A stretch of 64,000 nucleotides of DNA from Yuukianura sp. NJ FZ-2021. Taxonomy: Eukaryota. The stretch covers positions 372,001 through 436,000 of the forward strand of contig JAJCTO010000011.1 in the NCBI GenBank assembly GCA_046563655.1, read 5' to 3'. A program made the translations under genes and the position numbers. Under the pieces are notes generated by a model. The model saw only the letters and a program-made list of their open reading frames with translations. It did not search any database and was not told where the DNA came from. Positions 4,352-61,133 of the stretch are shown here, in pieces. The first letter of the stretch is position 1; each line of letters starts with the position of its first letter.

Positions 4352-4379
4352 ACAGTCTTTATTCAAGTCAAATAAATTA

Positions 4380-5144: not shown

Positions 5145-5212
5145 GCTGTTGTGAATGCTGGAACACAAATGATGAGGGACAGAAGTCGCTTACCTCCCTC
5201 ATCACACCAATG

Positions 5213-5486: not shown

Positions 5487-5499
5487 GCATTTGTACATA

Positions 5500-5934
5500 A
5501 TGCCGGTTTACTGTGACATTTGCTCCACGTCATTTTCCAGCGCATACGCATTAAATCAACATAATCGCGTTGCTCATTCAGACGAAGCTATGGAATCTGA
5601 GGCAGAAACGGAAAGTGAAACAGAAACGGAAACTGAAGAAGAAGAAGATGACTCTAAGGCACATTCTGGCATGAGTAAATCCAGCTTATCGTTAATCCTT
5701 CATGCGCTACACAATGCAGATGTTGGAGTTCAATGGCTGACTTTGGACAGTTTACGCAACCTTGTGGAAGGCACAGACGATTCTGATTCAGATGACGATG
5801 AAGAGGAATCATCCGACAAGTTGGATTCAAGTCAATTATATTATTTAATAGCCGTTGTAAAAGCCGGAATAAGAAATGTAATCAATATTAACAAAGCAGA
5901 ATTTTTAAAAATGCTGAACAAAATGGTTTTATAA
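5500..5934 (+). CDS. Small C2H2 zinc-finger / acidic protein (144 aa)
   Basis: MPVYCDICSTSFSSAYALNQHNRVAH, two D/E tracts, preceded by TATA/Inr, AATAAA at ~5985. Confidence 0.8.
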   Translation: MPVYCDICSTSFSSAYALNQHNRVAHSDEAMESEAETESETETETEEEEDDSKAHSGMSKSSLSLILHALHNADVGVQWLTLDSLRNLVEGTDDSDSDDDEEESSDKLDSSQLYYLIAVVKAGIRNVININKAEFLKMLNKMVL

Positions 5935-5990
5935 ACATTTATTGTTTTCAGTTTACAACCTAACATTTTTTTCACACAAGTCAAAATAAA

Positions 5991-8900
5991 TTATTGAGAA
6001 ATATCTCTATGTCCAAATGCTAATGTGTTAATTCTATCAACACCATATCGTTTGGTATCTAAACCGTTCAGAGCCCTTTTTAACGTTAATTCTGTGAAAA
6101 TTCTATGCTCTACACTTCTAAATCCTCTCATCCATACACGAGTTTGAACGTCTTCCTTGAGCACTTTTTCGAAATCTTCATATGCTATTTGGTTGTTGAC
6201 AGCAGTTTTAGTTATTCCTTTGACTTTCTTCGTGTATTCGTCTTTGATGAACCAGCTGCCGTCAGTCTTCTTTTGGTAAATATTTTTCCCATCAAAGCCT
6301 TTGCAGACTTGAAGTTTCAAGGACCTAATGGTGTACATTTTTGGACGAGGACAAAAGACGTAAGTGACTACAGAACCGGCAGCTTCATCTTTGAATTTTC
6401 CCAAAACTTTCTTGTTTGTGGGATCATGAAACTCTCCAAAAATGGGGTGATCGGATTCATATTCGCTCATGTCATACAAGTCCTTGTCATGGAGCATGTC
6501 TTGATAAACGTCATCAGTTTGGATGTGATAGATGAAGGAATCTGAAATAAAAAGTTAGCTTTAGTTTAAAGTTAAATTGTTGGATAGTTCAACATTTACC
6601 AGTGTCAGTATAAATAAGGCGACACTTGTCAACGCCGTATTTCGCCTGTATCGTATAGTGATGTCGATACATGATGCTCTTTGCTAGCTCAAGCACTGTG
6701 ACGCCCGTATATATTGGCTTGTTTAAAGTGACTTGAAGTCTCTTCATCATAAAGATGCACGTTGACTCGTTAATTGGAATTACATTCTGGACGGTGGGTT
6801 TCTTGTTGTAACGTAGAGCTTCTTCCATTGACGTAACGATACGAACATTTTGACGTTTTCGAACTTGCTCGATCGCTTTGCCAAATGCAGAATTGTTGAG
6901 CAGTTTCCAATAATCCTTTTCAAAGTCTGATGTAGCCCTTTTTCTCATTTCGGTGTTAAAGTCGATAAAATCCTTCATCCATGGTCTCTGAGTGAAGGAA
7001 ATTCCGCGGTGGAGTTTTGTAACTTTCACTCCAAGCTTCAGGTACTCCATCAAAATGGCGTGATGTAGAATATAATTCTTCTTATTATTCAGATCAGCCA
7101 CAAGTTTCTTAACTTTGAAAATTCCAGGACCTGTGTTGAGTTTTTCCGTCAATTGTAACTGATGACTGGATAACTCACTTTCTGCAACTGTACGGTTAAC
7201 TGGAGCCGGAGGAAAATCATTCAGCTTGTCATGCAATGAAGGATCAATTTCCAAATCCACTTCAAGCATGTATCCTTTTTCATTGTCCATGATGAAGTGG
7301 TTTTCTTGAAGTTTCATCAACTCTTTCTCTGTTAGCCATTGGAACTGACCAGTTGGAAGCGGAAGACTCATGCTTTTGCCCTAGTGAATAATTAAATTTT
7401 AGAAAATAATTTTTCATAGACGTTGTTGAATACTTACATATAAGTTGTTGGCATCAATGTAGATGAGGTAACTGGATTCCTTTTCTGGATCGTACTCATC
7501 TCCCATGTACTTGTTGTTCGCTCTAGCCTCTCGCATGGATCCAACGCTAACGTATCCACCTATAAATAAAATGAATTAGAAAATCTCTAGCATTTGACTT
7601 CTAGGTTTTACCTCTAATAGCATGCTCCAGCCAACAATGCATGGTTGGATCTGTGATTAGCTCCAATTCCACTCCTGATTTCTTGAGAACGCAATCCATT
7701 GAAATCATAGGTAACGAGAAGTAATGGGCCAGGTCCAATTCGTAAGCATCAAACATTATTTTTCGGATTCCCTCCATCACATCAGCCAGAAGCGAGACAT
7801 CTAGCCTAACGTACATGTCATGCCAGTCTCCCATATTTTGAATGTTGTAGCTCTTCCATACTTTTTGAGCGTGCTCATACACTTTATCTTCAATGTTTGT
7901 CTCCGTCAAGTCATTGTAGAAATCTTCTTTTGGCGGTAGAGTTGTGATTTCGAAATCCTTGCAAGACTTCATGAGAGAATAAGGGTAAACACCCTTTTCG
8001 AAGAGAAGTTCAATGTCATCGTGTTGTGCAAACTCTTGTCTTGTGATTGGAAACTTGGCATTAGGATCGGCTCGCATCACTTTCACTAATTTGTCTAAGG
8101 ATTTCAGTGTAAATCCAAGACTGTCTGTAAACCTCAACTTGAAGGGCTTCTTCTGTCAGCGTGGTGGTTCTTCATCCTCATCGAAATCATCGTGGTAACC
8201 AGGAACGATGCTCAGCGACATGTATTTTTCACTGCTTTTGGGAATAACAGTGATGTCCTTGATGATTCCTTCCTGCTTAAGCTTTCCAGCAGATTGTACA
8301 ATGAAGTGCACATCGTACGAGGAGAAGTTGTGCATAAAGACGGGAAACTCCTTCTTGATTTGCGCTTGGAGGTTGCAGTCTTGATGAGCCATTCCGATGT
8401 AGTTGAACGGTGGAAGATGCGAATGGTGTCGTACTTTGGTTCCATCCAATGTCTTCTCGCAAAAACAGCAATTTTTTTCAAGGGCGGCAGCACTTCTTTG
8501 CGATGGAGTCAGATTAAGCATATCTGGAGCAATTTTTTCATAGTACCGAACTTCCTCTTCCAGTGTTTTGGAGTACTCAGTAATGCTGTGAATGAATTTT
8601 GCAGCAACGTCTTCGTCATCGTTAGTGATATGATAATATTCGCCATGTCTTCGCTTTCCGTTGAAGTCGACACAAACCCAAGCATATCCACATGGCTTAT
8701 GAAGGTGAGTGCAACACTTATTTACAGGTTGTACTGGTCTTCCACGTATTTGTTCCTTATGCTCTCGGCGCTCCTCCTCTTCTATAGTTGAGGGATTAAA
8801 TTTTGGGAGGAAAGCTTCAAAATCAGCATAGAATCGAAAAGGCACTGGTTGAGTCCTGGCCCACTTGTTAAAAGTCAATTTGTTGTCTGTAGGATATACA

Positions 8901-9370
8901 ACTTTTTGAAGATCCAACGACGCGCAATACTTGATGTGCTGTTGAAGAGTTTGAGATGATTGAAAATTGGAGAGACAATTGCGACAAATGTGCAGTGTCG
9001 TATGCACATTTGGCGCTCTCATTAATGCTTCAAGGTTTCGAATCAGAATGAAGTGCGCGTTGTTTTCTTGCATTAGACACATGAGGTCGACGTGTATTTC
9101 CTTCGACTGTTGGGAATTGTACAGTATTGAGATCTTGCTTTGTATAAAATTGAATGATTCAATTTTGCTCAACTTCCGCGGTTGTGATTCATCCATGTCA
9201 TAACCAAGAACGGTTATAGAAATGTTCGGGTTGAGTTCTTCAAAGTGAGGGATCTGCTCCAAAGTCATCGGAAAATGGAGTCCTTTAGTGTTCAACTTGT
9301 GCTCATAAGGCTGGTATGTTTTAATAAGCTTGTCTACGCGACATCTGTTATTATTTCTTGAACGGAAGTG
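5991..9370 (-). pseudogene. Protein-primed family B DNA polymerase (pPolB), 4 exons, 5'-truncated, one in-frame stop
   Basis: ExoI YADFE, ExoII HNFSSYD, FTDS, KGVYPY, IRGG, YIDANNLYG, KLLNNSAFGK, YTDTDS, KGI motifs. Introns 7560-7611, 7381-7437 and 6542-6599 (all GT-AG) restore the frame. TGA at 8156-8158. Endonuclease-VII-like insert CCFC...VRHHSH...AHQDCN. Confidence 0.92.
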
Positions 9371-19526: not shown

Positions 19527-21529
19527 TTATTTATTTATTTATTTATTTATTTATTTCCACTGATACCCTGCATGCAGGTAGTTACATCGTGGGTGCTTTT
19601 AGTTAAATAGGATGTAGTGCTAGTGTAGTGAATTGTTGTAATATGCGTACTAAGTTAAATGGTGAAAATTGTAAAATTAAATTAAAATATAGAGGATGTA
19701 TTTTGATTAAGTTCGTTATTTTTAAGATAAGTTAAGATTGTACAGAAGTGATTCTAGGCTATCATCTAGAGAATTTAAGTAGTTAAGTTCCGAGATTTGC
19801 TGCAATTCAAGGAAGTACGATGCTAAAGTTGTTCGCAATTTGGAGGGGCAGGTACTGGTTAGTAGTGATTGATATTCCACGGGTAATAAGTTGATGAGAC
19901 GCGAAACGGTTTGAATGAACGATTTTGGGTGGTATTTCCTGTTATTAACAACGTATGTACCGGATCTGGTAGATGTTGTGTTAGATGAGTGCGACGAAAT
20001 TTCGGAGGTGATGGACTCAAAGTAGGGAATTTTGTTGCAAACCAAGTTTCGGTAAATAAGTAGTTGTTCTACAATGCCGATGTTAGTTGGAATTAGCCAG
20101 TTAAGAGTAGAGTTGATTTTAGAAAGAACGCAGTCTCTTTTACGCATCTTGAAAATGAATCGTACGGCTCGTCTAAATATTTTGTTGACGCAGTTGAATG
20201 TCGACTTGTTGCAGTTGGACCAAAGTATGATCATGTACTGTATAATTGGTAGAAAGTAAGAAGTGATCATCAGTTTTCTGTTGAACTCGGACAGAAAGTC
20301 TTGAATAGGGTAAAAAGACCACAAGATTCTGTTACACTTTTTAACCACTTCACTTATGTGTTCACACCATGTTAATGAGTTGTCAAGTATCAGTCCCAGT
20401 GTCTTGAAGGAAGTTACACTTGTGATTGTAGTATTTGCAACGTTTAGAGTGATTAGGCCAATTTTTTTCACTATGTTTTTGTTTCCAACCAGCAGTACTT
20501 TTGTTTTTTCAATATTGATGCTGAGATGATTGACTTTCATCCATTGAACGATTGAGGCAATGACTGTTTCTGCTCGAGAAATTAATTGATCAATCAATTT
20601 TGGGTCACCTCCAATGACAATGTTATTGTCATCAGCGAATAATATTGGAATTCCATCACCGATTATCCATGGTAAATCGTTGATCATGATTGAAAATAAT
20701 AGCGGGCCTAGGATGGATCCCTGTGGCACTGAGAGTATCGTTGATTTTCGTTGTGAAAAGTTCCCATTTAAGTTTACTTGCTGAGTTCTGTTGTTGAGGT
20801 AAGATTCAAACCATGGAGTTGAAACGTTGTACCACTTGAGTTTTTCAATTAAAATATTCTTGTCAACCGTGTCGAATGCTTTCTGCAAATCTAAGGAGAT
20901 GATTAGGCAGACCTCACCAAGATGTAATTTAGAATAAACTAACTCAGTTAGAGCCAATTGAGCGATGGTCGTGGAATGGTGTTGTCTGAAGCCGAATTGA
21001 TTTTTGTGTAATAGACAGTGACGACTGAAAAAAGTTTTCAGTTGCTGATGTGCGAATTTTTCACATAATTTTGCGATGAGTGGTTGCAGTGATATTGGCC
21101 GTGTTTCAGAAGGATGTTTGGGGTTGCAACCTTTTGGCAGCGGGATCACAACCGAGTTCTGAAGCGAATGTGGGAAGACTCCACTTAGCAAACTTTGGTT
21201 AATAATGTGAATTGATTTGAAATATTAGGTGCTTCAATGCAATGGGAAAGAATCCAATTGGAGAACCCACACTGATCTTTAGTTTTTTTCAGTTTGTTCT
21301 TGCTTGTCTTCCATGTTTTGATTAATGCCGATGCGGTGATTTTTCTGAAGTTGAATTTTTCAATGGGAGTAATGATTGCAGGCGGTTTGACAGGAAGTGC
21401 ACTTGAAATAAATTTTGGAGTTGTAATTGAAATATAGTAGTCATTAATTTCGTCAGGAGTGAAATGTAGGCACTCTTTTGATTTTTGTGCTTGTGGGCGA
21501 ATTTTGTTTATTGCCTTGTGAGGGCCAAG
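19527..21529 (-). mobile_element. 5'-truncated non-LTR retrotransposon (CR1/L2/Jockey-group RT), frameshifted
   Basis: RPISL, NQFGFR, LDLQKAFDTV, VPQGSILGP, LFADD motifs in 19722-21191; frameshift near 21205-21215; (TAAA)n tail at 19527-19556. Confidence 0.9.
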
Positions 21530-29501: not shown

Positions 29502-32500
29502 TGTAATGTTCTGCAAGAACATTTGTATGATAGACTTTACTCGTCTAATTACAAAACCAGAGTGACTAATTTATTTCCGAATTAAGAGAACTCAATTGAC
29601 ATTGTAGAAGTGTCAAGGGTGTGAAGATGCTTAGATTGCATTTCACACGACAGTAAGAGAGGAACAGAAAAAGATGCATGAATGCATATATTACACTATC
29701 TTCCCCTTTGGTTTTGAATACAAAGAAAGGAAAAGGGAACTACATCGTACTGTTCATTTGACGTGTCATGCTCCGGGTTTGGGGGCGGTGTGCCACTTTT
29801 GGAGGAGGGGGTGCCGCTCGCTGTGGACTGGCTGGAACTGGCGGTTGTACGCTCGGCAGGGTTGCTGGCGGTGTCGCTTGCGGGGAAAGGATCGGCATCG
29901 GGCGGATCGGCGATCCGGTGGGGGTCTGAAACGGTGAAGCCGTAGGGCTTCCTGGTAAGGATCGGGGAGAACTGGCAACATCTTGGCGCGGCGAAACAAG
30001 TGGTGTGACAGTCACCTCACTTCGTCCGGTATCCTGTGTCGTAGGAGGCGCATCAAGGATTTGATCCATGTGACGTTTGTGCAGCTTCCCTCCCACCTCG
30101 ATGTTGAATGTAACTGGACCGAGCTGGGTACGAATGACTCCCGGAGACCATTTCGGTTCGTTTTTGGAAAAGGTTCGGACCCAAACCTTTTGATCAATAC
30201 CGAATTGCCGATCTCTGGCGTGTGGGTCAAAACTCTCCTTTTGGTGAGCTTGAGCGCGGGACGCAGTCAGAGCGGAACCCGGATGCAGCAGGTGCAGTGT
30301 GTTTCGGAGCGGTCGGTTTTGAAGGAGTTCGCAAGGAGCTGCGGCCGTTGTAGGGTGCGGTGTGATACGGTACCGGAACAAGAACCTTTGCAGTGGTGTG
30401 GTTAAATCCCCATTGAAACCAGATAAGGAGGATTTAAATGTTTGGATAAATCGCTCCGCCTCGCCGTTGGAGCGGGGGTGATATACGGTACTCGTGGAGT
30501 GCCGAATACCATTTTGACGACAAAAGGACTAAAATTCGTAGGAAGTAAACTGTGGTCCGTTGTCGGAGACTATTTGATCCGGAAGTCCGAATCGACCGAT
30601 GCATTCCAGAATTCGGGAAATGACCGATCCCGAAGTGGAGTTGTTTCCGAAAGAAAAAATTTCCGGCCATTTGGAGTGGGCATCAACTATGACGAGCCAC
30701 ATCTTGTTTTTGAACGGACCGGCGAGGTCAATGTGCAGACGCTGCCACGGCCTTTCAGGGAATTCCCATGGGTGGAGCGGCGCGGACGGCGGATTCGGAC
30801 GGCGCTGGATGCAGAAGTTGCATGACCGACAAGCGTCTTCGATGTCCGAATCAATCCCAGGCCACCAGACATGTTGGCGGGCAATGGATTTCATGCGCAC
30901 TATTCCAGCATGAGTCTCGTGGAGGTTCGCCATAATCCGGGAGCTTAACGAACTGGGTATGACGATCCGACGACCCCAGAGAATCACGTCTTGAACTAGG
31001 GTTAACTCAGCACGACGACCGTAGAACGGAAACAGTGGATCGGTTTTGGATGGTGGGGTCGGGGACCAACCATCAATAATTTTGCGAAGGACGGCTGCAA
31101 GGATGGGATCCTTCCCCGTCGCAGTTCGGACTGTTTTGCTATCCACCGGTAAATGTTCCATGGTTTGGGCACTGATGAGATTCACCTCAGCTTCGGTGGT
31201 CGGATCGAGCTCGGTCGGATCGGTCGACGGGTGCCGGGAAAATGCATCGGCGTTGCCGTGATCGGTGGTGCGGCGATAGTCCATGGTGAAAGCGAACTGA
31301 CTTAAAAACAGAGTCCACTTCTGAATTCGAGTTGCAGTGAAACTCGGAACGGGCGATCCGGGTCCAAGGATCGAAGTAGGGGCTGGTGGTCGGTTATAAT
31401 TTGAAACGAACGACCACACAAAAACTGATGAAACTTTTTGACACCAAACACAATCGCCAGGGCTTCACGTTCTATTTGTGCGTAGCGACGTTCCGTCGGA
31501 GAAAGCAGCTTAGACGCGAATGCGATCGGGCGTTCCGTGTTGTCTGGGAAACGGTGAAAGAGTACAACTCCTAGTCCGATAGGTGAAGCGTCACAGCTTA
31601 TGCCTATGGGGAGTGAGGGGGTGTGATGGGCAAGCACTGGTGACTTGGACAGGGCCACTTTCACTTGGGAGAAAGCACGGTCACAGGCTTGATCCCATTT
31701 GAACACGACATCCTTCTGAGTCAATCGGTACAAGGGAGCACTAATGTGTGAAAGTCCAGGAACAAAACGTCCGTAGAAATTCACAAGTCCCATAAACGAA
31801 CGCACTTCCGTCACTGAAGTGGGACGTTGAATAGAATTGAGGGCTTTCACTTTCTCCGGGGAAGTGGAAACACCGTTCTGGTTAAGCACAAAGCCCATAA
31901 AATCAAGTGATTTTTGAAGAAACTGACACTTTGACATGGCAAGTTTGTAGTTTGCCTTGCGCATGCGCAGAAAAATTTGTTCAAGATTCTTGATATGGTC
32001 ACTGTCGGTGGCACCACTGGTCAACGAATCGTCCATAAAAGAGCCTGTCATCGGTATTCCCTTCAAAAGTTCGTCCATAAACTCTTGAAATATGGCGGGC
32101 GATGATGCAATTCCTTGTGGCAACACATTATACTGATACAAACCTTTATGTGTGTTAATCACCAAAAACTTTCTGCTGGACTCATCCAACTGAAGCTGGT
32201 GAAAGGCGTCTGGACCGTCGAGACGCGAGAAAGTCGAACCACCCGAAATCAAGGTCAAAAGGTCATCAACCCTTTGCAGTGTGTACTGGTTGACGTGGAG
32301 TTGGGAGTTCACTGTATGTTTAAAATCACCTGTGATACGCACTCTCCCATTGGCCTTTGGAACTACCACGAGTGGAGACGCCCACTCTGAATGGTCAATG
32401 CGAGAAATAACACCAGATTTCTCCATTCTGTCGAGTTCCGTGTCCACTTTTGCTCGTAGGGCAAAAGGGATTGGTCTGGCCTTGAGGAATCGCGGGGTAG

Positions 32501-34138
32501 CATCTTCCTTCAGCGTGACTTTGGCTTTAAAATTTTGAATTGTGCCACTTGGGGGTAAGAAAATGTCTGAGAACTCTGCAAGGAGAGACTTGAGTGTGGG
32601 CACTGGGGACACACTATTACACTTAGGTGAAAGTGAAAGGTTCAATTTAAACAACCGGATCAGATCTCTGCCGTAGAGTGATCGTCCTTTCACTACACAG
32701 AATGTATAATTCTTGGTTTGTCCATTGAGAGTCAGTTTAACGTCCAAATCCCCTCGGGGTTTGAAAGTGTGATCTGTGAACGACCGAAACACTTGGGTTG
32801 ACTTTCGCAACGGTGGAGAACCTAAACTTTCACTCCAAAAACTTTCACTGAGGAGACTCCGGCGACAGCCACTGTCAAATTCCATTTCATGGAGAAAGTC
32901 ATTGATTTTGACTTTTGCAATGTATTCAGCATCAACAGAATTTCCTTGGGAAATTGCGAATACATTTGAGACGTTGTAGTCCACTTCAACTACATTTCGT
33001 GTCTCGTTAGTCGCTTTCGGTAAACTGCGACCGTACTTTTTGAAATGGCCCTTTTTACCACACCCATGACACACAACGTCTTTGTGGGGGCAGTCCTTGG
33101 CCTTGAAATGTTCAGTTGACCCGCAGTTAGGGCAACTGCTGTTGGATTGGTTCTTCTTGGGCGGGGCACTCTTCCCACCGCGTTTTGAATTGTGTTGTCC
33201 GCCACCTCGGCCACGACCGGAAGGTGGACGCGGACCTGACCCACGACCGCGAGTAGAGGTGTAGTTGACCTCTGACTTGGTTTCTCGTATGGTCGAAGTG
33301 CCGGCTTCAGCTGCTTCTTGGGCTGTGGCTACTTGCAAAGCATCCGACAGGGTGAGGTTGTCGTCACGAATCAAGATTCGTTTCTGAGCAGGTTCGTTGA
33401 TGAGGCCAAAAATGAATTGATCGCGGAGACGATCCTCTAGAGCAGTGTCAAATTTACATGTTACTGCTAACTTACGTAATTCGGCTAAGAACATGGAAGC
33501 CGTTTCCCCATTCCGTTGTTTTCTGGAGGCAAATTTGAAGCGTTCCGACAAAGCCTTTGGAGGAGGTTTGAAATGGACACGAAGGGTCTCGACGAGAATC
33601 GGGAGATCCACTTCGGTGGGTTTTTTAGGAGACACTAAACTTGACAGTAGAGAGAAAGTGGGGAGTCCAACTGACGAAAGTAGAACACCCTTGGCACGGG
33701 ACTTGTGGCTATCCTTCGTTGGGTCAATGCCGTTGGCACACAAAAAGGATTCGAAAATCATTATCCAGTCCTCAAAATCGTCCGTGGTTGCACAAAACGG
33801 AGGAAGGACACCAACAGTTGCGGAGGTCATGGTTATGATACGTTCGCGTACAGCGTAATCTGATGGCTTTTCCTCTTTGGGTTGTTTTGGCACAGGCAAC
33901 ATGTAATGGGGACTACTTTAACTGGAAAGCACTCTCGTCGCCAATGTAATGTTCTGCTAGAACATTTGTATGATAGACTTTACTCGTCTAATTACAAAAC
34001 CAGAGTGACTAATTTATTTCCGAATTAAGAGAACTCAATTGACATTGTAGAAGTGTCAAGGGTGTGAAGATGCTTAGATTGCATTTCACACGACAGTAAG
34101 AAAGGAACAGAAAAAGATGCATGAATGCATATATTACA
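29502..34138 (-). mobile_element. Ty3/Gypsy LTR retrotransposon (Mag/K02A2.6-like), LTRs 29502-29695 and 33945-34138
   Basis: 194-bp TGTAAT...ATTACA LTRs differing at 2 sites; AAAAA TSD; PBS TGGCGACGAG (complementary to tRNA-Ser(GCU) 3' end); PPT AAGGGGAAGATAG. Confidence 0.96.
29740..33902 (-). pseudogene. Gag-Pol polyprotein (Gag-CCHC-PR-RT-RH-IN) with one frameshift and one nonsense codon
   Basis: FDSG protease, LPQG/FMDD RT, CDAS/EREALA RNase H, HHCC + DLAG/SDNG/NGEAE integrase; 1-bp deletion ~31380; TAG at 30529-30531 in frame with 29740-30381. Confidence 0.93.
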
Positions 34139-49449: not shown

Positions 49450-52222
49450 AGTGGCGGTTTCGGTGCTTACTACATAGAAGACCAAAAGGGCCATTCGCAA
49501 CTTTCGATTTCCGACTCGGAAATTTTGAGTGAAATTTGACTTGTACTGTTTTCCGGTTTCCAGCCTTCCCACCTTCTGAAGAGAAACAGCGGATTCGTCT
49601 TCCAGTCTTCCGATTTCCGGCTTCCAGAGAATGTTTCGTCTTGCAGGCTTCTAACTTCCGGCTTTTAGAGAATGTTCTGCCTTCGAGGCTTCCAATCTCC
49701 GGGTTCAAAGGAATATCTTGTTTTCCGGGCTTCCGGACCCCGGCTTCAAGAGAATATTTTCTCTTCCAGGCTTCCGTCTTCAAAACTTCCGGAAGCCGGA
49801 AGACGCCTTCATTGGAAGAGTCTTCGCGAAGACACTACATCACTGAGTGCGAAATAAACGATGGCGTTGAAGAAACCAGGAATTAAAAAATTATGTAATC
49901 CGACTACATTGTTTCCTTGTTAACTTACTTCCGCAGAACCTTGTTTCTTCATCACCACACAATCTAGTTCACCTTGCAGAACTTACTTTGCTCATTACAG
50001 ATAAACACATTAGGATATTAACACAAAACTACCATCCCTTTAGCTATCATTACCGTATTTTCTGGCAGATAACCTTTGGACTTTCTGTGAAATTTTAATT
50101 TGGGATGAGCGAATTTTTGGTCTGCAAAACCTCATCATCACATAACCTCATTATTTTACTCGCGTAAAACCATATTTTTTGTTAAAAAACATCATCCTCC
50201 ACATGCATGATCGGGGTTCACGCAGACACGTTCACTCTTTTTAGTAGTTAGTTGGAGCACTAACTGCAAAAAGAGTGCGTATTCTCAAGTCGAAAATTCA
50301 AATCACATAAAGATTCAAACGTGCCTACTGTTTACTGGATTAGTTTCAATTTGAGGTTTTAAAACTTCTCAAGCTCCACATTTTTATTTCCAATTTATCA
50401 AAAATTTTTGATCTAAACTATTACACAATTTGTTTCCACAACACCTCCGCGCACTTTGGGATTAACATCAAAACGTTGCCACAAACATGTCATGTTTCGG
50501 TGGGCTCTATTTAAGTGTTAATACCAGACGTTTGAAAAGAAAGATAAATCTTTTTGGGGACTTCTTTGTCTTTAATAAGTTTTAAAGTCTTTAAAAATTT
50601 TGAAAAACTCTTTTTGCTATAAAAACACTCTCTTTTTTTAACGAAAATCAGGTAAAAACAGGAAAGAGTCAAAAAATGCAATTTTAGCAGAAATTTCCAC
50701 GATTTTTTGTTAGTCTTCCAGAATTGGGCGAAAATTTTAATTTCAAAACGGTGGGGTGAAAATTTAGTCAAAATTTTATAACATGTCTCATATTAACATC
50801 ATCTTTGATATGCATTAGATATTCAGTGACGGTTCGTCCAGTGAATATCTAGTGGATAATATATTTCATCCGGTTTTATCCGGAAGAAATGGCTGGATAA
50901 AATGGATATAAGTAGATACTTCCACTTATTTTGATGTAAGTGGAAGAAATACTTTATCCATCTAGCAAAAATGGTGTTTAGGAACAAAAGTTACGCTTAG
51001 TTTAACTATTTTTCCAATAACACATACAAATCTTTTATTGTATTTGGTTGATTCTAGGATTTTTATGTTTTTAGAGTTGCTTTTCTAGCCATTTTTAAGA
51101 ACATTTTTAGAACTTATTTGAGCAATTCTTTAAGGATTTTTAAGATTTTAAAATAAGGATTTTTGGAATTTTCTTTTCACAGGTCTGTTTATTACGAAAT
51201 CTAAACAACAGAGCACGTTCAGCTACACAAATTATACTTGGACATTTTCAATGTAACGTTAGGTATTCGCTTCCAAAGACTTACGTACACCAGTCCATCT
51301 TAATTAATGTTCGTCTAAAAATGCTCCGGATGCTTAAACACTTGAATATGAAAGTTTACTTTATGCTCATGGAAAAATTGATGGGAGACATTTTTTGTCG
51401 AACCGCCTCTTCTTCATTTGAAGAAGCCCCTCTTATCTCAGGTGAATTTTCAGTAATTCAATTACACAACAAAATTTGGATGTCAGTTCAGTTACTAAGA
51501 AACTAATTACCTCCAACAGTAAGTGTCGGGAAATGTATAAACTAAACGACTAAACCTAGAAATGGCAAAATCTTCTCATTTGATCTAACAACTAGGTCTA
51601 AAAATAATTTTATCCTTGACAAAGACATGTTCTCATTGAGTCATATGTATAGAAATAGAAGATAAATGAATGTGTGATTATTTTAAGGATTTGTGGTATT
51701 ACTAAAATGATTTGACCTTCAGAACTTCTGAAAGAATTCTGGGACTACAGTAAGCATTTTCGCATTTGTAGACAAATTCGGAGTTTTGAAAATTGAGAAT
51801 TTGCAGATAATCTTGCAAATGCATATCTCTTCTAAATTCTAAAGGAAAAATTCGAATTTAAATTACAAACTATAATCAAATGTGTTTCACTCATCACCAA
51901 AATTAACTAATTATTTGAAACTCATGCAGAAACAATATTTCCTTTGTTTTTGCACGGTATTTTGAATTTTTTAGGTTTTTTGTATCTAATTAATTCAAAC
52001 GCCGCAAACAAAGCTCCGTCCCTTTGAATTCATCCATTTCTTTCGCTGGGTTATTAGCCGTGGACAAAATGTCGAGCTAGCTGGAGAAGGACGTTGTTTA
52101 GCATTACAATAAAATTTTATAACACACCAGAACCAACAAAATTTAATTGAGGTGAATTACGGTATACGGTGTTTCGCAAGTGCTTGAAAAATATGGCAAC
52201 AATAAATAAAATATTTTAGTAA

Positions 52223-55200
52223 TTTTTTTTTTTTTTTTTTTTTTTAATGGTTCATAAAGTTTTTTCACAGTCACCTGCCAAAGGCAGGTTGAGAAAAGAA
52301 GTAGGATTTAAGTTAGATTATAATATGAATAACTCGTAAAGATCTTTTCCTGAGGGTAAGGTTCCCAAGATTGAGCAGGAGTTTCCGCGTTGAACAGCTA
52401 GGCTTATTCGTTGTAGGAAGAAGGTCGAGGCTCGTTTATCTCCAGATGCTTCTGACAGCCGATGTCCGATTTGTTTTAGTAGACGAAGACCTTCGGATCC
52501 GAATACACCTGATGTCTCGACGGCAATGATGGATACGACGAAGCGAGATTCTAGGTCACGATAGAGATGATGTTTGTGTGTCTCTGCTAATTCGGCAGCA
52601 TGACCATAGCGGGAAGACGATGTCGAGAGGTAGGAATTTGCATAAGTGTCACGGCAGGTAAAGTCCCAGCAGAGGCAGCGTCCTGAGCTCCAAGGAATGA
52701 GAGTAACACCATCTGGCCGTTTGCCATCGGATCTGCTGCAGCCGACAGGTTCTTTAATTGAAGGAAATCCAGCGGTTTGTAATGCTCTGAAGATTATGTC
52801 GTTGACTGAGTTGTGACGAGAGTGTCTTCCGGCGCTACGCTTACAGCTTAAACCGTGGAGACCGCTACTTGACACCGGAGCACCGCACGAGCAGATATGA
52901 GGTTGGCATATATCAGTTCCTAGGCGAAGAGCACAAGAAATCCTAAAAGATTCGTCCGAAAGTAGAGTTCCAAGTTGTCCGGAGGGAATTGCGTGTAACC
53001 AATCTCCAGAATGTGGTGCAGCGGCAGCCAGTAGTCTTGCTTTGTCGATAAGGGTTGAAGAGTTCTGAACTAGGGAAGAAGAAATTTGCTTAAAGACTTG
53101 AATTTCCCAGAGGTTTTGAGATTTTTTGTCCTGTGGAATAACGAAGCCCAATTGAGACCAGTTGAACAAAGCCAAATCCATTGAATTGTCGAAGGGTGAC
53201 AGGGAAGACGGCAGAAATGTAGAAATTAGCTCCGCACAACTATGGACTGATGCCAAAAACGAAAATGTAGCGCAGTCCTTAGCGTGGCGAACTCCTAATC
53301 CGCCCAAGTTCACCGGTAGACTTAACTGAGACCAAGCGTGTGAAGACAAAGTAGAATTGAGAATCGATTCCATCACTGCACGTAGTGCACAGTCGTATTC
53401 ATCGAGAAGGTCGGTTTCCAGAAACGAAGGAGCACATCTGAGAAAATATAGGAGTCTTGGGGTGGAAATTGAAGCCCGAAGCAGGTAGAACGCAATGTGG
53501 GCAGGTATGTCCGACAACTTAGATGAGAGTGACTTGAAGTTTTCTGTTTTGCATTTGAGAATCCGACGAGACGATTCTTTGAAAAGAGGCGCTCCTAGAA
53601 GTTCAGCTTGATCATAATCAGGGAAGATGATGTCTGGAGAAACAGATTGGAATGATTGGACGATTGAACGGGACTCAATTGCTTCTGCACTTAGAATGAT
53701 GACTTCACATTTTCTTAGGTTAAGTTCTAGTCCAAACGAAGAGGCTTCTCTTTGGATGTATTTGAGATTTTCGAGAACGACATCCGGAGTATCGGCAATC
53801 GTTGCGTCATCTAAATACCAGATGTTGACATCAGTGGATAATGAAGAGGCCAATTGGTGGATGGTTAAAGCGAAAAGAGCAGGACCAAGGGGATCCCCTT
53901 GTTGCACTCCTAGTTTCGATTTGATGCAAGCAGAGTCGTAGTAGAGATCTGAATCGTGCGAATAAGCTTCAGAGACGAATTTGTAGAAGTCTGGAAGTAT
54001 GGTCTTCACAATGTCCAGCATACGATCTCTTCTAATTAAGTTGAAGGCATTGCGAAAGTCGATCTTGAGTAGAACCTTGGCAGAAACATGGTTGGCATTA
54101 CAGAAGATTCTGGCAGCGTGGGCGACGGCTTCAGCACCATTCTTGATTCCAACGCCAACTTGGATCGGGCTTAAGGTTGAAGTAATGACATTCAACGAGT
54201 GAGATAGGATAAGTTTAGACACGAGGCGTCTCCAGGTAAGGCCGATTGCGATAGGACGAATGCCTCCTTTCTTCTTTTGGATTGCTAATAGAGTTGCGCC
54301 AAAAAAAATTCGTCTCACTTCATCGGGAAGAGAACCATTTGTAATGAAGTTACACAATCCAGAAACTGATGTTAGAAGAGCTGCTCCTTCATCGCCTGAG
54401 GACTTTGAAGTTAGTTCCTTTAGAATCTGTGGACGAAAAGAGTCCAGGCCTCCGGCGGATCCATTTGGGAATGACGAGATGGCTTTGATGACGTGACAGT
54501 TTTCAAAGATAACCTCAGATCTCGGAGGTGCGGCAGGAAACGAGGTTGGTAGTGGATGATCGGGATGCAATTGGTGGAGAATGTTTAAAGTATCAGAGTC
54601 TTTGGAGGCTATGCAATCTTCGGAGACCAGGATTCGAACTGCACCGCGTATATCCCCGTCGGCTAGTTTAGATTGAATGACCTTTGAGGAGTTACAGTGA
54701 TGTGAGGACGGGTGATGGCCACGAGAGAATTGCTTGAATTGATGATGGGAGATGCTTGCAGGCGCCTCAGAAGTGATACGGCTAGCGTTTGTCTTCACCC
54801 ATTTGGTTAGATTTGTGACAGCATCGTCTTTTGACGGAATGGGAAAAACTTGGTAGGGGAAGTAGAATAACTTTGCCCAAGAATCTGTAGAGTTGTGCTC
54901 TATTGCTTGGTCGATGATGGTGGACAGGGCAGAGGCGGTCGTTCTTCTTGCTCCTTTTGGAATGTGTTTGAGTGTGGACGTAGATTTTCTTAAGTCAGCA
55001 AGCTTTAGCCCAAGAGAAGTTGTAGAGATATCCTCATTGGAAGGAGCGGACCAAGTGATGTCGAAGTAAGATTGTTGAGAATGTTTGCGTCCGCCGGCTC
55101 GTGTTTTGGTAATGTTTGGAAAAGCTTTTAATAGTTTCAATCCAATTGTCGCGTCGGCTAAAGGTTTGATCTTCACATCAGAGCAAAATGAATGGTATTT

Positions 55201-55843
55201 ATCTTTTAGATCTTGTTTCTTGATCAAAGCTCCAGAAGCCTCCTGAATGTTGTTCTTGATCCAGTCGTCAGTTAGTTTAGAAATTTGTGATTTTCTTAAG
55301 CACCCAGTGGATGATGTAGTAGATGACGATGATGTAGATGATGAACCACTGAACTCCAATCCGCAGTCATCGGATGATGACCCGATTCCGGGGTTCTCCG
55401 TGGTTGTGTCCAGGGTGTTATCACAAATAAAATTGATCGTTGAATTTTCTGGAAAATTGAGTTGGATGTTTGTTTCACAACTTCCGAGGTATCTCAACGG
55501 TCGTTCAGTTGCCATGAAGAGCAGAAAAGGTTGTCTAAATCCGTGAATTTTCAAGATTTAAAGTTGAATTTGATAATTTGTTGACAAGGTAACGCTTAGC
55601 AGCACAAGTAGTTGTTTGTTTGAAAACGTCCTTCGAGTTGTCCTGAGATGAGAGACGACTTGGACGACGAAGATGGCCGGGTTGACAGATATCCGGAGAC
55701 AAATTGACCAAACAAGTATGTCAAAAGATGCGCCAGAGATGGAGGAACAGTTTAATACCAAAAAACCTCGATAACACTCGCAATTTCTATTTCGGTAAAT
55801 GGATAAGCAGGGAGCAACTTTTGCGTGTCGTCAAAACGATTAC
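52223..55843 (-). mobile_element. Apparently full-length RLE-type (R2-group: CRE/NeSL/HERO-like) non-LTR retrotransposon
   Basis: Poly(A) tail (T run 52223-52245), 13-bp TSD AATATTTTAGTAA (52210-52222, 55844-55856), single intact ORF, 3' UTR hairpin ACCTGCC-AAA-GGCAGGT. Confidence 0.92.
52318..55515 (-). CDS. RFX-like winged helix + reverse transcriptase + CCHC + restriction-like endonuclease (~1065 aa from first ATG)
   Basis: IRPIAIG, KIDFRNAFN, GVQQGDPLGP, WYLDD; CSCG...HGLSC; RHNSV, KRPDG, WDFTC, AE..KH RLE motifs. Confidence 0.92.
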   Translation of the reverse strand: MATERPLRYLGSCETNIQLNFPENSTINFICDNTLDTTTENPGIGSSSDDCGLEFSGSSSTSSSSTTSSTGCLRKSQISKLTDDWIKNNIQEASGALIKKQDLKDKYHSFCSDVKIKPLADATIGLKLLKAFPNITKTRAGGRKHSQQSYFDITWSAPSNEDISTTSLGLKLADLRKSTSTLKHIPKGARRTTASALSTIIDQAIEHNSTDSWAKLFYFPYQVFPIPSKDDAVTNLTKWVKTNASRITSEAPASISHHQFKQFSRGHHPSSHHCNSSKVIQSKLADGDIRGAVRILVSEDCIASKDSDTLNILHQLHPDHPLPTSFPAAPPRSEVIFENCHVIKAISSFPNGSAGGLDSFRPQILKELTSKSSGDEGAALLTSVSGLCNFITNGSLPDEVRRIFFGATLLAIQKKKGGIRPIAIGLTWRRLVSKLILSHSLNVITSTLSPIQVGVGIKNGAEAVAHAARIFCNANHVSAKVLLKIDFRNAFNLIRRDRMLDIVKTILPDFYKFVSEAYSHDSDLYYDSACIKSKLGVQQGDPLGPALFALTIHQLASSLSTDVNIWYLDDATIADTPDVVLENLKYIQREASSFGLELNLRKCEVIILSAEAIESRSIVQSFQSVSPDIIFPDYDQAELLGAPLFKESSRRILKCKTENFKSLSSKLSDIPAHIAFYLLRASISTPRLLYFLRCAPSFLETDLLDEYDCALRAVMESILNSTLSSHAWSQLSLPVNLGGLGVRHAKDCATFSFLASVHSCAELISTFLPSSLSPFDNSMDLALFNWSQLGFVIPQDKKSQNLWEIQVFKQISSSLVQNSSTLIDKARLLAAAAPHSGDWLHAIPSGQLGTLLSDESFRISCALRLGTDICQPHICSCGAPVSSSGLHGLSCKRSAGRHSRHNSVNDIIFRALQTAGFPSIKEPVGCSRSDGKRPDGVTLIPWSSGRCLCWDFTCRDTYANSYLSTSSSRYGHAAELAETHKHHLYRDLESRFVVSIIAVETSGVFGSEGLRLLKQIGHRLSEASGDKRASTFFLQRISLAVQRGNSCSILGTLPSGKDLYELFIL

Positions 55844-56034
55844 AATATTTTAGTAAATATATTGCCAGTTTTTAGTATCTATTAAAAATATATTTTGCCA
55901 GATTTTAGTAAATATTTTTCTCATACATGATACTAAACGAGAAAGTCGCATTTCTTTATATTCGAAATCATTGTTTCTATGCGCGTGGCCCTTTCACGCT
56001 TCCGAAAAGTAGAAACCAAGTTTTTTCAGCCCAC

Positions 56035-59000
56035 AGTAAACAGGTAGTTTCAGCCCGTGTGACTTCCCACCATTTCCCAGTAGTAGGAACTCATAGACTA
56101 GTTACTGGGAACTCTGTTTTATTATTTCCCAGCATTTCCCACTTCCCTAGCCCAAGTTATTACAACTTGAGACAGTAAAAAAGTATCCCCTCACCCTCCC
56201 AATAAAGAGGTAGTTTCTTTCCTAGTCACTTCCCACCATTTCCCAGTAGTGGGAAGTAATGAGCTAGATGCTGGGAACTCAGTTTTGTGATTTAAGAGCA
56301 TTTCCCACCTTCCTAGCCAAAGTTATTCCAACTTCAGAGTTTTGCCCCCACCCCCCCCCCCCCAATAAGGAGGTAGTTTCTCCCCTAGTCACTTCCCACC
56401 ATTTCCCAGTAGTGAGAAGTAATGAGCTAGATGCTGGGAACTCATTTTTGTCATTTCCCAGCATTTCCCACTTCTCTGGCCAAAGTTATTCCAACTTCAG
56501 AGTTTTCCTCCTACCCCCAAAATAAAGAGGTAGTTTCTTTCCTAGTCACTTCCCACAATTTCCCAGTAGTGGGAAGTAATGAGCTGGATGCTGGGAAGTC
56601 AGTTTTGTGATTTAAGAGCATTTCCCACCTTCCTAGCCAAAGTTATTCCAACTTCAGAGTTTTGCCCCCACCCCCCACAATAAGGAGGTAGTTTCTCCCC
56701 TAGTCACTTCCCACCATTTCCCAGTAGTGGGAACTGATGAACTAGATGCTGGGAACTCAGTTTTGTCATTTCCCAGCATTTCCCACCTTCCTTGCCAAAG
56801 TTATTCCTACTTCAGAGTTTTCCTCCCACCCCCAAAATAAAGAGGTAGTTTCTTTCCTAGTCACTTCCCACCATTTCCCAGTAGTGGGAAGTAATGAGCT
56901 GGATGCTGGGAACTCAGTTTTGTGATTTAAGAGCATTTCCCACCTTCCTAGCCAAAGTTATTCCAACTTCAGACAGTAAAAAAGTATCCCCTCACCCTCC
57001 CAATAAAGAGGTAGTTTTTTCCCCAGGGACTTCCCACCATTTCCCAGTAGTGGGAACTGATGGCCTAGGTGCTGGCAACTCAGATTTATTACTTCCCAGC
57101 ATTTCCCACTTCCCTAGCCAAAGTTATTTCAACTTCAGACAGTAAAAAAGTATCCCCTCACCCTCCCAATAAAGAGGTAGTTTTTCCCCAGGGACTTCCC
57201 ACCATTTCCCAGTGGTGGGAAATGATGAACTAGGTGCTGGGAACTCATTTGTGTTGTTTCCCAGCATTTCCCACCTCCTTAGCCAGAGTTATTCCCACTT
57301 CAGCATTTTGCCCCCCACCCCCCGCAATAAAGAGGTAGTTTCTCCCCTAGTCACTTCCCACCATTTCCCAGTAGTGGGAACTGATGAACCAGATGCTGGG
57401 AATTCATTTTTGTCATTTCCCAGCATTTCCCACTTCTCTGGCCAAAGTTATTCCAACTTCAGACTTTTGCCCCCACCCCCCACAATAAAGAGGTAGTTTC
57501 TTCCCTAGTCACTTCCCACCATTTCCCAGTAGTGGGAACTGGTGAACTAGATGCTGGGAACTCAGTTTTGTGATTTAAGAGCATTTCCCACCTTCCTAGC
57601 CAAAGTTATTCCAACTTCAGAGTTTTGCCCCCACCCCCCACAATAAGGAGGTAGTTTCTCCCCTAGTCACTTCCCACCATTTCCCAGTAGTGGGAACTGA
57701 TGAACTAGATGCTGGGAACTCAGTTTTGTCATTTCCCAGCATTTCCCACCTTCCTTGCCAAAGTTATTCCTACTTCAGAGTTTTCCTCCCACCCCCAAAA
57801 TAAAGAGGTAGTTTCTTTCCTAGTCACTTCCCACCATTTCCCAGTAGTGGGAAGTAATGAGCTGGATGCTGGGAACTCAGTTTTGTGATTTAAGAGCATT
57901 TCCCACCTTCCTAGCCAAAGTTATTCCAACTTCAGACAGTAAAAAAGTATCCCCTCACCCTCCCAATAAAGAGGTAGTTTTTTCCCCAGAGACTTCCCAC
58001 CATTTCCCAGTAGTGGGAACTGATGGCCTAGGTGCTGGCAACTCAGATTTATTACTTCCCAGCATTTCCCACTTCCCTAGCCAAATTTATTTCAACTTCA
58101 GACAGTAAAAAAGTATCCCCCCACCCTCCACGATAAAGGGGTAGTTTTTTCCCCAGAGACTTCCCACCATTTCCCAGTGGTGGGAAATGATGAACTAGGT
58201 GCTGGGAACTCAGTTGTGTTGTTTCCCAGCATTTCCCACCTCCTTAGCCAGAGTTATTCCCACTTCAGCATTTTGCCCCCCACCCCCCGCAATAAAGAGG
58301 TAGTTTCTCCCCTAGTCACTTCCCACCATTTCCCAGTAGTGGGAACTGATGAACCAGATGCTGGGAATTCATTTTTGTCATTTCCCAGCATTTCCCACTT
58401 CTCTGGCCAAAGTTATTCCAACTTCAGACTTTTGCCCCCACCCCCCACAATAAAGAGGTAGTTTCTTCCCTAGTCACTTCCCACCATTTCCCAGTAGTGG
58501 GAACTGGTGAACTAGATGCTGGGAACTCAGTTTTGTGATTTAAGAGCATTTCCCACCTTCCTAGCCAAAGTTATTCCAACTTCAGAGTTTTGCCCCCACC
58601 CCCCACAATAAGGAGGTAGTTTCTCCCCTAGTCACTTCCCACCATTTCCCAGTAGTGGGAACTGATGAACTAGATGCTGGGAACTCAGTTTTGTCATTTC
58701 CCAGCATTTCCCACCTTCCTTGCCAAAGTTATTCCTACTTCAGAGTTTTCCTCCCACCCCCAAAATAAAGAGGTAGTTTCTTTCCTAGTCACTTCCCACC
58801 ATTTCCCAGTAGTGGGAAGTAATGAGCTGGATGCTGGGAACTCAGTTTTGTGATTTAAGAGCATTTCCCACCTTCCTAGCCAAAGTTATTCCAACTTCAG
58901 ACAGTAAAAAAGTATCCCCTCACCCTCCCAATAAAGAGGTAGTTTTTTCCCCAGGGACTTCCCACCATTTCCCAGTAGTGGGAACTGATGGCCTAGGTGC

Positions 59001-60710
59001 TGGCAACTCAGATTTATTACTTCCCAGCATTTCCCACTTCCCTAGCCAAAGTTATTTCAACTTCAGACAGTAAAAAAGTGTCCCCTCACCCTTCCAATAA
59101 AGAGGTAGTTTTTTCCCCAGAGACTTCCCACCATTTCCCAGTGGTGGGAAATGATGAACTAGGTGCTGGGAACTCAGTTGTGTTGTTTCCCAGCATTTCC
59201 CACCTCCTTAGCCAGAGTTATTCCCACTTCAGCATTTTGCCCCCCACCCCCCGCAATAAAGAGGTAGTTTCTCCCCTAGTCACTTCCCACCATTTCCCAG
59301 TAGTGGGAACTGATGAACCAGATGCTGGGAATTCAGTTTTGTCATTTCCCATCATTCCCCTCCTTCCTAGCCAAAGTTATTCCAACTTCAGACTTTTCCT
59401 CCCACCCCCAAAATAAAGAGGTAGTTTTTTCCCTAGTCACTTCCCACCATTTCCCATTAGTGGGAAGTAATGAACTCGATGCTGGGAACTCAGTTTTGTT
59501 GTTTTCCAGCATTTCCCACCTCCTTAGCCAAAGTTTTTCCAACTTCAGACAGTAAAAAAGTGTCCCCTCACCCTTCCAATAAAGAGGTATTTTTTTCCTC
59601 AGAGACTTCCCACCATTTCCCAGTGGTGGGAAATGATGAACTAGATCATGGGAACTCTGTTTTCTAGTTTGCAAGCATTTCCCACCTCCGTAGCCAGAGT
59701 TATTCCAACTTCAGCATTTTGCCCCCCACCCCCCCGCAATAAAGAGGTAGTTTCTCCCCTAGTCACTTCCCACCATTTCCCAGTAGTGGGAACTAATGAA
59801 GCAGATGCTGGGAACTCATTTTTGTCATTTCCCAGCATTTCCCACCTTCCTAGCCAAAGTTATTCCAACTTCAGACTTTTCCTCCCACCCCCAAAATAAA
59901 GAGGTAGTTTCTTCCCTGGTCACTTCCCACCATTTCCCAGTAGTTGCAAGTAATCACCTGGATGCTGGGAACTCAGTTTTGTGATTTTCCAGCATTTCCC
60001 ACTTCCTTAGCCAAAGTTATTCCAACTTCAGAGTTTTCCTCCCACCCCCAAAATAAAGAGGTAGTTTCTTTCCTAGTCACTTCCCACCATTTCCCAGTAG
60101 TGGGAACTGATGAACCAGAGGCTGGGAACTCAGTTTTGTGATTTCCCAGCATTTCCCACCTCTCTAGCCAAAGTTATGCCAACTTCAGACAGTAGCCCCC
60201 ACCCCCCACTATAAAGAGGTAGTTTCTCCCCTGGTCACTTCCCACCATTTCCCAGTAGTGGGAACTGATGAACCAGATGCTGGAAATTCAGTTTTGTCAT
60301 TTCCCAGCATTTCCCACCTTCCTAGCCAAAGTTATTCCAACTTCAGACTTTTGCCCCCACCCCCCACAATAAAGAGGTAGTTTCTTCCCTAGTCACTTCC
60401 CACCATTTCCCAGTAGTGGGAAGTAATGAACTCGATGCTGGGAACTCAGTTTTGTTGTTTTCCAGCATTTCCCACCTCCTTAGCCAAAGTTATTCCAACT
60501 TCAGACAGTAAAAAAGTATCCCCTCACCCTCACAATAAAGAGGTAGTTTTTCCCACAGAGACTTCCCACCATTTCCCAGTGGTGGGGACTGATGGGCTGG
60601 ATGTTGGGAACTCAGATTTATGACTTCCCAGCATTTCCCACTTCCCTGGCCAAAGTTATTACAACTTCAGACAGTAAAAAAGTATCCCCCCACCCTCCAC
60701 GATAAAGGGG
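56035..60710 (+). repeat. ~157-163-bp tandem repeat array (right arm, ~29 units) with ~964-bp hexamer higher-order repeat
   Basis: Near-identical spurious ORFs at 56894, 57857 and 58822 give periods of 963 and 965 bp. Confidence 0.96.
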
Positions 60711-61133
60711 TAGTTCTTTACCCAGTGACTTCCCAGCATTTCCCAGTGGTGGAAACTAACAAGGAGGTCACGGGAGAATTGTTTTTGTAGTTTCCAGTCA
60801 TTTCCCACGTTCCTGGACGAAGTTACGTCACTTCAGACAGTAACTTCAGATAGCACTTCAGACTTTTAGTCAGGGCCGATTGGTGAAGACATTGGCAGAC
60901 AGAGGGTCATTTACATTCTCGATAAACGTAAAGATTATTTATTTAATCTGGAAGGAGTTCGTTGTTGTTGTTAAGCTGTTGCGTTTCCGACAATTGGATA
61001 ATTATTGACAATTTGAGATTCAATTTCGTATTCGTTGTTTTAATACGAGCAATCTTGCGAGGAGGAAGGGAATCAGGTGAGCTGGTGTTTATCAGTTGAT
61101 TGATGGCATCTTGCCTCACCACGAGTAAGAGCA

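Follow-up and report, generated by a model that had tools for sequence, protein, structure and literature searches.

An RFX-type winged helix precedes an R2-like reverse transcriptase and endonuclease in a retrotransposon protein from Yuukianura sp. NJ FZ-2021

The stretch of DNA considered here (hereafter the window) comprises 64,000 nucleotides of Yuukianura sp. NJ FZ-2021 (assembly GCA_046563655.1, contig JAJCTO010000011.1, positions 372,001 to 436,000) and carries, on its minus strand, a retrotransposon without long terminal repeats (a non-LTR element) of 3,621 bp at window 52223-55843. The element codes for a single protein in one open reading frame (ORF), and the N-terminus of this protein is an RFX-type winged helix, as judged from its sequence and from the fold of its model. 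The architecture runs from a disordered leader through the RFX winged helix, a helical N-terminal extension, the reverse transcriptase (RT), a linker and a CCHC zinc knuckle to a PD-(D/E)XK restriction-like endonuclease (RLE), and the RFX domain occupies the slot that is held by C2H2 zinc fingers in sister lineages. Taken as one proposition, that the element belongs to the R2 group of long interspersed elements (LINEs; RLE non-LTR retrotransposons) as a full-length copy of recent insertion, and that its RFX domain binds target DNA beside the insertion site, is favoured here with moderate confidence. A preliminary description of this DNA had noted the RFX pattern at 55051..55266; the peptide is indeed encoded there, and the strand has been corrected to minus, given that the plus-strand translation of 55051-55266 is riddled with stops. 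The RFX peptide sits in a minus-strand open frame (52318-55557) of 1,079 codons from stop to stop, from the start of which all residue numbers are counted. The first ATG is residue 15 (window 55515), leaving 1,065 codons.

The assignment of the winged helix, which the preliminary description had made from a residue pattern, is borne out by profile and by fold. Pfam RFX_DNA_binding (PF02257) matches residues 96-168 (E 6e-10), its 40.1 bits clearing the curated cut-off of 27, and matches the N-terminal 238 residues searched alone with E 7.8e-11 and 42.9 bits. Among sequences of the Protein Data Bank, phmmer recovered nucleosome-bound RFX5 (8zjr_M, E 8.3e-8) and RFX1 (1dp7_P, E 0.01). In the full-length AlphaFold model (68-row alignment; mean predicted local distance difference test score (pLDDT) 88.3, predicted template-modelling score (pTM) 0.82), residues 89-170 mostly exceed a pLDDT of 90, and residues 1-84 are disordered. 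For residues 80-189 alone, an AlphaFold model (8-row alignment, mean pLDDT 79.6) gave a structural match to 1dp7_P (E 1.3e-5, template-modelling score (TMt) 0.84, root-mean-square deviation 2.2 Å, 75 columns) and another to 8zjr_M (E 1.6e-5, TMt 0.86, 2.2 Å, 83 columns). RFX1 and RFX5 were the only two matches at E<=0.001, the third standing at E 0.19. Such agreement goes well beyond chance. Both models predict the same order of secondary structure (helix-strand-helix-helix-strand-strand). W99, Y121, G139, F146, P147 and R153 are invariant in 9/9 RFX-bearing rows, at 41-51% overall identity. The wing motif R-x-G-x-R-x-x-S-x-x-x-Y (R153, G155, R157, S160, Y164) aligns with RFX1 and RFX5, and it is by the wing that X-box DNA would be bound. 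Over the whole protein, Pfam matched neither a C2H2 nor a Myb family at E<=10.

The remainder of the protein is an engine of the R2 type. RVT_1 matches residues 426-621 (E 2.3e-17) in frame with the RFX domain. An alignment of 68 rows was built from the window protein and 67 of its 94 homologues, 27 short or low-coverage matches having been dropped by eye. Across it, D583/D584 of the RT, E936, D965 and K995 of the endonuclease and C889 of the knuckle are invariant, while C891, H901, C905 and D949, all present in the window protein, are kept in at least 90% of rows. The earlier statement that RFX is in frame with an intact RT (YLDD) and RLE therefore stands, since all catalytic and zinc residues are present. 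No match to the endonuclease/exonuclease/phosphatase family (apurinic/apyrimidinic type) was found by Pfam at E<=10. A profile of these 68 rows matches R2Tg along a stretch that extends from the pre-RT region to the end of knuckle and RLE (E 6.1e-31); it also aligns with R2Pm (E 7.3e-27), R2Bm (E 9.5e-17) and, in the RT part only, LINE-1 ORF2p (~1e-10). With the full-length model, Foldseek ranked R2Tg 9nl3_A first (E 5.3e-22, 923 columns), R2Bm 8gh6_A giving E 1.1e-21, over 923-964 columns. VIA-align placed the R2 chains at Z 22-24 with 700-760 aligned residues, and LINE-1 ORF2p at Z up to 29; R2 and LINE-1 ORF2p head the structural matches. Its R2 rows start at model residue 213-284 (chain residue 246-555) and reach ~1075. 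No VIA-align row covers residues 1-184, and the list carries no information on the RFX domain itself. As no R2 row begins before model residue 213, the RFX domain lies N-terminal to all that aligns with R2. R2 proteins carry a zinc-finger/Myb region at their N-terminus. In the ESM Atlas only RVT_1 clusters were seen (scores 0.84-0.89), which serve as leads only.

The history of the N-terminal slot was examined in trees built on the RT-to-RLE columns, with the RFX columns left out. All 9 RFX rows fall into one 19-row clade, with Shimodaira-Hasegawa-like approximate likelihood ratio test (SH-aLRT) support of 100 when a quick tree was made from 68 rows; in a careful tree of 26 rows the support is 100/99. 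The other 10 rows of this clade are mostly gene models truncated at the N-terminus. Three complete rows of the same clade (P0014, P0015, P0016) have CX2CX12HX4H fingers immediately upstream of a conserved motif, L-K/R-x-x-P-K/R-G-A-R, which in the window protein follows directly after RFX, and P0020 of the sister clade also has such a finger; Pfam backs the C2H2 fingers of these four proteins below threshold only. In the window protein (P0001) no C2H2 pattern is present upstream of the motif. The preliminary wording, that RFX stands in place of zinc fingers, thus fits both the fingers of these relatives and the point from which R2 begins to align. In the 26-row tree the branching order is P0008 (PHD and RFX), P0014 (C2H2), the P0015/P0016 group (C2H2) and the remaining RFX rows. 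At least three changes among RFX, zinc-finger and other states, in whichever direction, are required on this tree. Further N-terminal modules in the wider family are PHD (P0022, P0029, P0045), OTU (P0032, P0051), SAP (P0046, P0061, P0078, P0079) and, at 25.0 bits against a cut-off of 25.6, PWWP (P0048). Evidently, domains have been exchanged repeatedly at the N-terminal slot.

The fusion of RFX to RT recurs among homologues. A word-indexed search returned 94 homologues at E<=1e-5, the best at 52% identity, and Pfam finds RFX_DNA_binding together with RVT_1 in 8/94 (P0002, P0003, P0004, P0005, P0008, P0009, P0012, P0017; 8/44 and 0/50 in two scans). A PHD finger lies upstream of RFX in three of the eight by Pfam (P0003, P0004, P0005) and in P0008 by eye. 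A hidden Markov model (HMM) made from the 9 RFX segments, whose own rows match by construction, adds P0081 (E 3.4e-9) and, weakly, P0010 (E 0.044), which reaches 16.4 bits with Pfam RFX, below threshold. In metagenomes, 80 loci were kept from 240 confirmed, and the in-house HMM detects an RFX segment in seven; four of these pass the Pfam cut-off, and the remainder are L020 and two loci without a Pfam match. Two loci, L001 and L008, are not independent evidence, being in all likelihood the contigs from which P0002 and P0081 come. No clear poly(A) or element end was found past the stop codon in L001, L004 or L020. In L001, the closest relative (L001:80-1230, plus strand), the frame is open for ~380 codons upstream of RFX and holds a 14-residue Ser/His-rich repeat, without PHD.

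Three of the eight RFX-RT proteins (P0009, P0004, P0012) are named as Folsomia candida. P0009 bears the name 'RFX-like transcription factor daf-19', P0004 'Pol polyprotein from R2DM', and P0012 is hypothetical, or in UniRef an 'RFX-type winged-helix domain-containing protein'. They are RT-bearing transposon ORFs, and their names are probably misannotations.

A search of the window RFX segment against 1.84 billion representatives gave 73 matches, of which only P0002 is a transposon protein; RVT_1 was found in none of the other 72 at E<=1e-5. RFX5_N is present in 25/72 and BCD_RFX in 5/72, which places the nearest cellular relatives with the RFX5/RFX7 type. Cellular RFX factors share the fold and the Pfam family, with 31-38% identity to the best single-domain matches, whereas the window protein, in contrast to RFX5/RFX7 and RFX1-3, is without RFX5_N or the BCD dimerisation domain by Pfam. 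The top RFX-segment matches are six proteins of ~870-1,090 residues (P0096, P0097, P0098, P0100, P0102, P0104) with 4-5 tandem RFX domains and no RT, an architecture that is not known for RFX proteins.

Two features delimit the element at 3,621 bp. One is a poly(A) tail of 23 nt; the other is a perfect direct repeat of 13 bp on its two flanks, the target-site duplication (TSD), called as the longest exact word common to both. The compact size of 3.6 kb reported before thus holds for the whole unit. In sequencing data, six runs were listed with words of the element, none of them an RNA run, which carries no information on expression. At least half of its sampled words are present in five DNA runs, which come under two coded organism labels; contigs were placed from X1, X2 and X4. 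The sixth listed run, X6 (a metagenome, share 0.10), gave 6 short contigs only. Single contigs span the RFX-RT junction (54546-55831, 54735-55480), and contigs of three DNA runs end at 55831, 55833 and 55836 (55843 in the window copy), after which three different T-rich loose ends follow. The listed contig pieces diverge by 0-2.4% from the window copy. Poly(A), a 13-bp TSD and variable 5' ends together form a footprint of target-primed reverse transcription (TPRT). The intact frame, tail, perfect TSD and contig flanks fit a young family at several sites, in agreement with the recent activity proposed in the preliminary description. Within the window, tblastn and blastn found no second copy, only the element itself. 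One X2 contig skips 55286-55355 (the Ser-rich linker) and 55400-55713 (start codon and 5' untranslated region, UTR). X1, X2 and X4 all show loose ends at 55356 and 55399, and the pattern suggests subfamilies with another N-terminal leader.

The insertion lies in AT-rich, non-genic DNA, 187 bp from a 158-bp satellite array. This array (56030-60757; 29.4 copies, 84% match), whose word depth in the runs is very high, begins upstream of the 5' end. No Rfam family for rRNA, tRNA or snRNA genes reached the gathering score anywhere in the 64-kb window. A joint of 52048>56628 in one X1 contig was considered as an empty site and rejected, given that it does not coincide with the TSD. Near the insertion stands the word GTTGCC, which matches an X-box half-site. 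With 21 strict half-sites in 64 kb on both strands, chance would put ~0.02-0.03 of them within 30 bp of the insertion. Across the reconstructed empty site of 240 nt, the half-site pattern matches only GTTGCC and three TGGCAA/TTGCCA words, and two TGGCAA words are upstream of the insertion. A count over the 64 kb as a whole gave one occurrence of the full X-box pattern (GTNRCC N0-3 RGYAAC) on each strand.

In the proposed mechanism, the RFX domain would bind double-stranded target DNA beside the insertion site, by analogy with the zinc-finger/Myb module of R2. The ribonucleoprotein held in this way would allow the endonuclease to nick the bottom strand, and the RT would then prime on the 3' UTR/poly(A) RNA. 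What suggests a role for RFX as a DNA-anchoring or target-reading module is where it stands in the protein, how well it is conserved, and that sister lineages have zinc fingers in this slot. Because the flanks differ between copies and are AT-rich, RFX probably either favours sites that are short and frequent, for which X-box-like half-sites are a possibility, or anchors the protein to DNA in general, and R2-like single-locus specificity is probably not to be expected from it. A more specific proposal, natural retargeting in which the slot swapped C2H2 for RFX (with or without PHD) and insertion came to be directed beside X-box-like half-sites such as GTTGCC, is put forward only tentatively and appears doubtful. 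Several observations weigh against target reading by the RFX domain. The GTTGCC word was noticed post hoc with n=1, and would occur by chance in ~2-3% of cases, or ~10% with the relaxed pattern GTTRCY/RGYAAC; a single copy with both flanks is the basis for any target preference; and no half-site is present in three other 5' flanks of 17-25 nt each, which are T-rich on the plus strand. Among the relatives, L004 lacks 4 residues of the wing and is not matched by Pfam, and L020 remains at 25.3 bits, below the cut-off of 27. Summed word depth over the element exceeds the left flank's several-fold to tens-fold, but this depth comes from contigs and is no copy number. Furthermore, the PHD, PWWP, SAP and OTU modules of the wider family fit chromatin tethering equally well.

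Chromatin tethering is the main rival to the binding of target DNA beside the insertion site. The RFX domain, along with the PHD finger of some relatives, would tether the ribonucleoprotein to chromatin or in the nucleus, bringing it to DNA that is nucleosomal or close to promoters, much as RFX5 binds nucleosomes, and the nick site would be set by the endonuclease and AT-richness. It is a possible but unlikely explanation. The identity of the nearest relatives speaks for it, given that RFX5 in its nucleosome-bound structure is closer by sequence than RFX1 and that the nearest single-domain matches are of the RFX5/RFX7 type. The PHD fingers upstream of RFX in some relatives, the histone or scaffold readers (PHD, PWWP, SAP) of other family members, and the AT/T-rich, mutually unlike flanks of different copies point the same way. 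However, the window protein has no PHD finger and still has RFX, its wing motif is retained, and the module that fills the same slot in sister lineages is the C2H2 finger, the classic sequence reader in R2.

It is improbable that RFX serves the RNA side (the element's own UTR) or dimerisation instead of target DNA. R2 proteins bind structured 3' UTR RNA, and the 72-nt 3' UTR of the element has a strong hairpin (z -3.82); a second R2 protein is also reported to be recruited for second-strand nicking (PMC13486585). Nevertheless, R2 RNA is held by the RT and the N-terminal extension, both of which are also found in the window protein, and in the matched RFX structures the domain is bound to double-stranded DNA, which is X-box DNA for 1dp7 and nucleosomal for 8zjr. 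An artefact or non-mobile gene, whether a host RFX exon joined to a LINE or a domesticated RFX-RT gene, is very improbable indeed, even though homologue P0009 carries a transcription-factor name ('RFX-like transcription factor daf-19 [Folsomia candida]'). It is contradicted because the domain is inside a TSD-bounded, poly(A)-tailed unit in the same frame and recurs: the RFX-RT order is seen in the eight homologues of several sources and in 4/80 metagenome loci by Pfam. In addition, contigs from the two organism labels span the RFX-RT junction in single pieces, and the element has been seen with several different flanks.

The features of the element are collected in Table 1. The 3' UTR hairpin has a minimum free energy of -14.6 kcal/mol, and none of 200 shuffles was as stable; the RT may recognise the RNA by this hairpin. 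Its stem core is CCUGCC/GGCAGG. In the leader, the stretch FICDNT aligns with W-I-x-C-D of the PHD-bearing relatives and may be a remnant of a lost PHD finger.

Table 1. Features of the retrotransposon and its flanks (window coordinates; 5' to 3' in element orientation).
Feature	Position	Strand	Basis
TSD copy, upstream, 13 bp, TTACTAAAATATT in element orientation	55844..55856	-	flank comparison
5' UTR, 328 nt; 5' end fixed by TSD; run contigs stop at 55831-55836	55516..55843	-	
ORF, first ATG to stop codon at 52318-52320	52318..55515	-	
Ser-rich disordered N-terminal leader, residues 15-84	55306..55515	-	pLDDT 22-33
18-bp repeat within leader	55310-55344		
RFX winged-helix domain, residues 96-168 by Pfam; folded unit 89-170	55054..55272	-	
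Helical RFX-to-RT region, residues 182-425; aligns with pre-RT N-terminal extension of R2 and LINE-1	54283..55014	-	
RT fingers/palm, Pfam RVT_1 residues 426-621; YLDD at 581-584	53695..54282	-	
CCHC zinc knuckle (C889, C891, H901, C905); aligned with R2Tg knuckle	52843..52893	-	68-row alignment
Restriction-like PD-(D/E)XK endonuclease, residues 910-1017 (R914, H915, E936, D949, D965, K995)	52507..52830	-	
3' UTR, 72 nt, stable hairpin at ~52262-52297	52246..52317	-	
Poly(A) tail, 23 nt	52223..52245	-	
TSD copy, downstream, 13 bp, perfect match to TTACTAAAATATT	52210..52222	-	flank comparison
GTTGCC word matching presumed X-box half-site, 9 nt downstream of TSD; lead only	52195..52200	-	

Elsewhere in the window, an LTR-retrotransposon pol is located at 29743-33917 (minus strand), where RVT_1 and RT_RNaseH_2 in an 871-residue frame are followed by Integrase_H2C2/rve, split over several frames. 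Another RT frame of 500 residues (19725-21224, minus strand; RVT_1 E 9.3e-30) is unrelated to the RFX element by tblastn. Nine ORFs of 150-400 residues lie on both strands of 2551-9370, and one of the ORFs, at 4383-5189 (minus strand), matches a Pox_A32-type packaging ATPase (E 1.5e-6, 28.3 bits). This cluster may be a Polinton/Maverick-like element.

Among known systems, R2Bm (8gh6), R2Tg (9nl3/9dou) and R2Pm (9nl2) resemble the element in having a single ORF with an N-terminal DNA-binding slot, extension, RT, linker, CCHC knuckle and RLE. The N-terminal module is an RFX winged helix here, whereas R2 has C2H2 fingers and Myb; identity is only 14-18%. Unlike R2, the element ends in a poly(A) tail and is flanked by a 13-bp TSD within AT-rich DNA, and it differs from R2 sensu stricto in that it is not inserted in 28S rDNA (0 Rfam matches in the window). 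With neither C2H2 and Myb nor the 28S site, it falls outside the R2 clade in that strict sense. Insertion at many sites is likewise a property of RLE LINEs of the HERO and BLAG type. The HERO clade is described as having many non-specific families (PMC4640811, PMC3636483), and BLAG of Blattella germanica varies in the number of its N-terminal zinc fingers, which is ascribed to recombination (PMC7650587); an RFX domain is not mentioned in the parts of the HERO and BLAG descriptions examined. To call the present element HERO-like would be a guess from behaviour alone, not from RT phylogeny, and the homologues found bear automatic names or none. NeSL/Utopia elements offer a precedent for variable accessory N-terminal domains in RLE LINEs, with 1-3 zinc fingers and, in some, a Ulp1-like protease (PMC4640811). 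They target U2 snRNA or spliced-leader genes, none of which is in the window, and the sections available report no RFX there. One distant match, P0093, has Peptidase_C48 (residues 1179-1358) C-terminal to RVT_1 (302-513).

For the wider RLE group, published accounts describe zinc fingers, Myb and the Ulp1-like protease (PMC4640811, PMC3636483, PMC7650587, PMC13580325). No RFX domain in a non-LTR retrotransposon protein was found in the full-text literature, where papers containing both terms proved unrelated, with Repbase and Dfam outside this search, and the RLE survey of Fell et al., cited in PMC13580325, may list such elements. The preliminary description knew of no RFX-bearing lineage. This agrees with the literature searched, but the lineage is not confined to this genome, and public protein databases already contain homologues, which go by misleading names, either of transcription factors or of R2.

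R2-type elements are a model for site-specific, RNA-templated DNA insertion and are now being engineered, the zinc-finger/Myb region reading the target. The lineage described here keeps an R2-like engine with another class of DNA-binding domain in the slot, and its sisters have zinc fingers, which indicates that the slot tolerates natural exchange. The RFX- and C2H2-bearing relatives form a concrete pair for measuring how the module affects the choice of site. In springtails, the annotation of transposon ORFs as RFX/daf-19 can distort gene-family counts. If insertion is directed by RFX, the element would be a compact scaffold of 3.6 kb with a confidently modelled structure, and the DNA-reading module of RLE LINEs would be interchangeable in nature.

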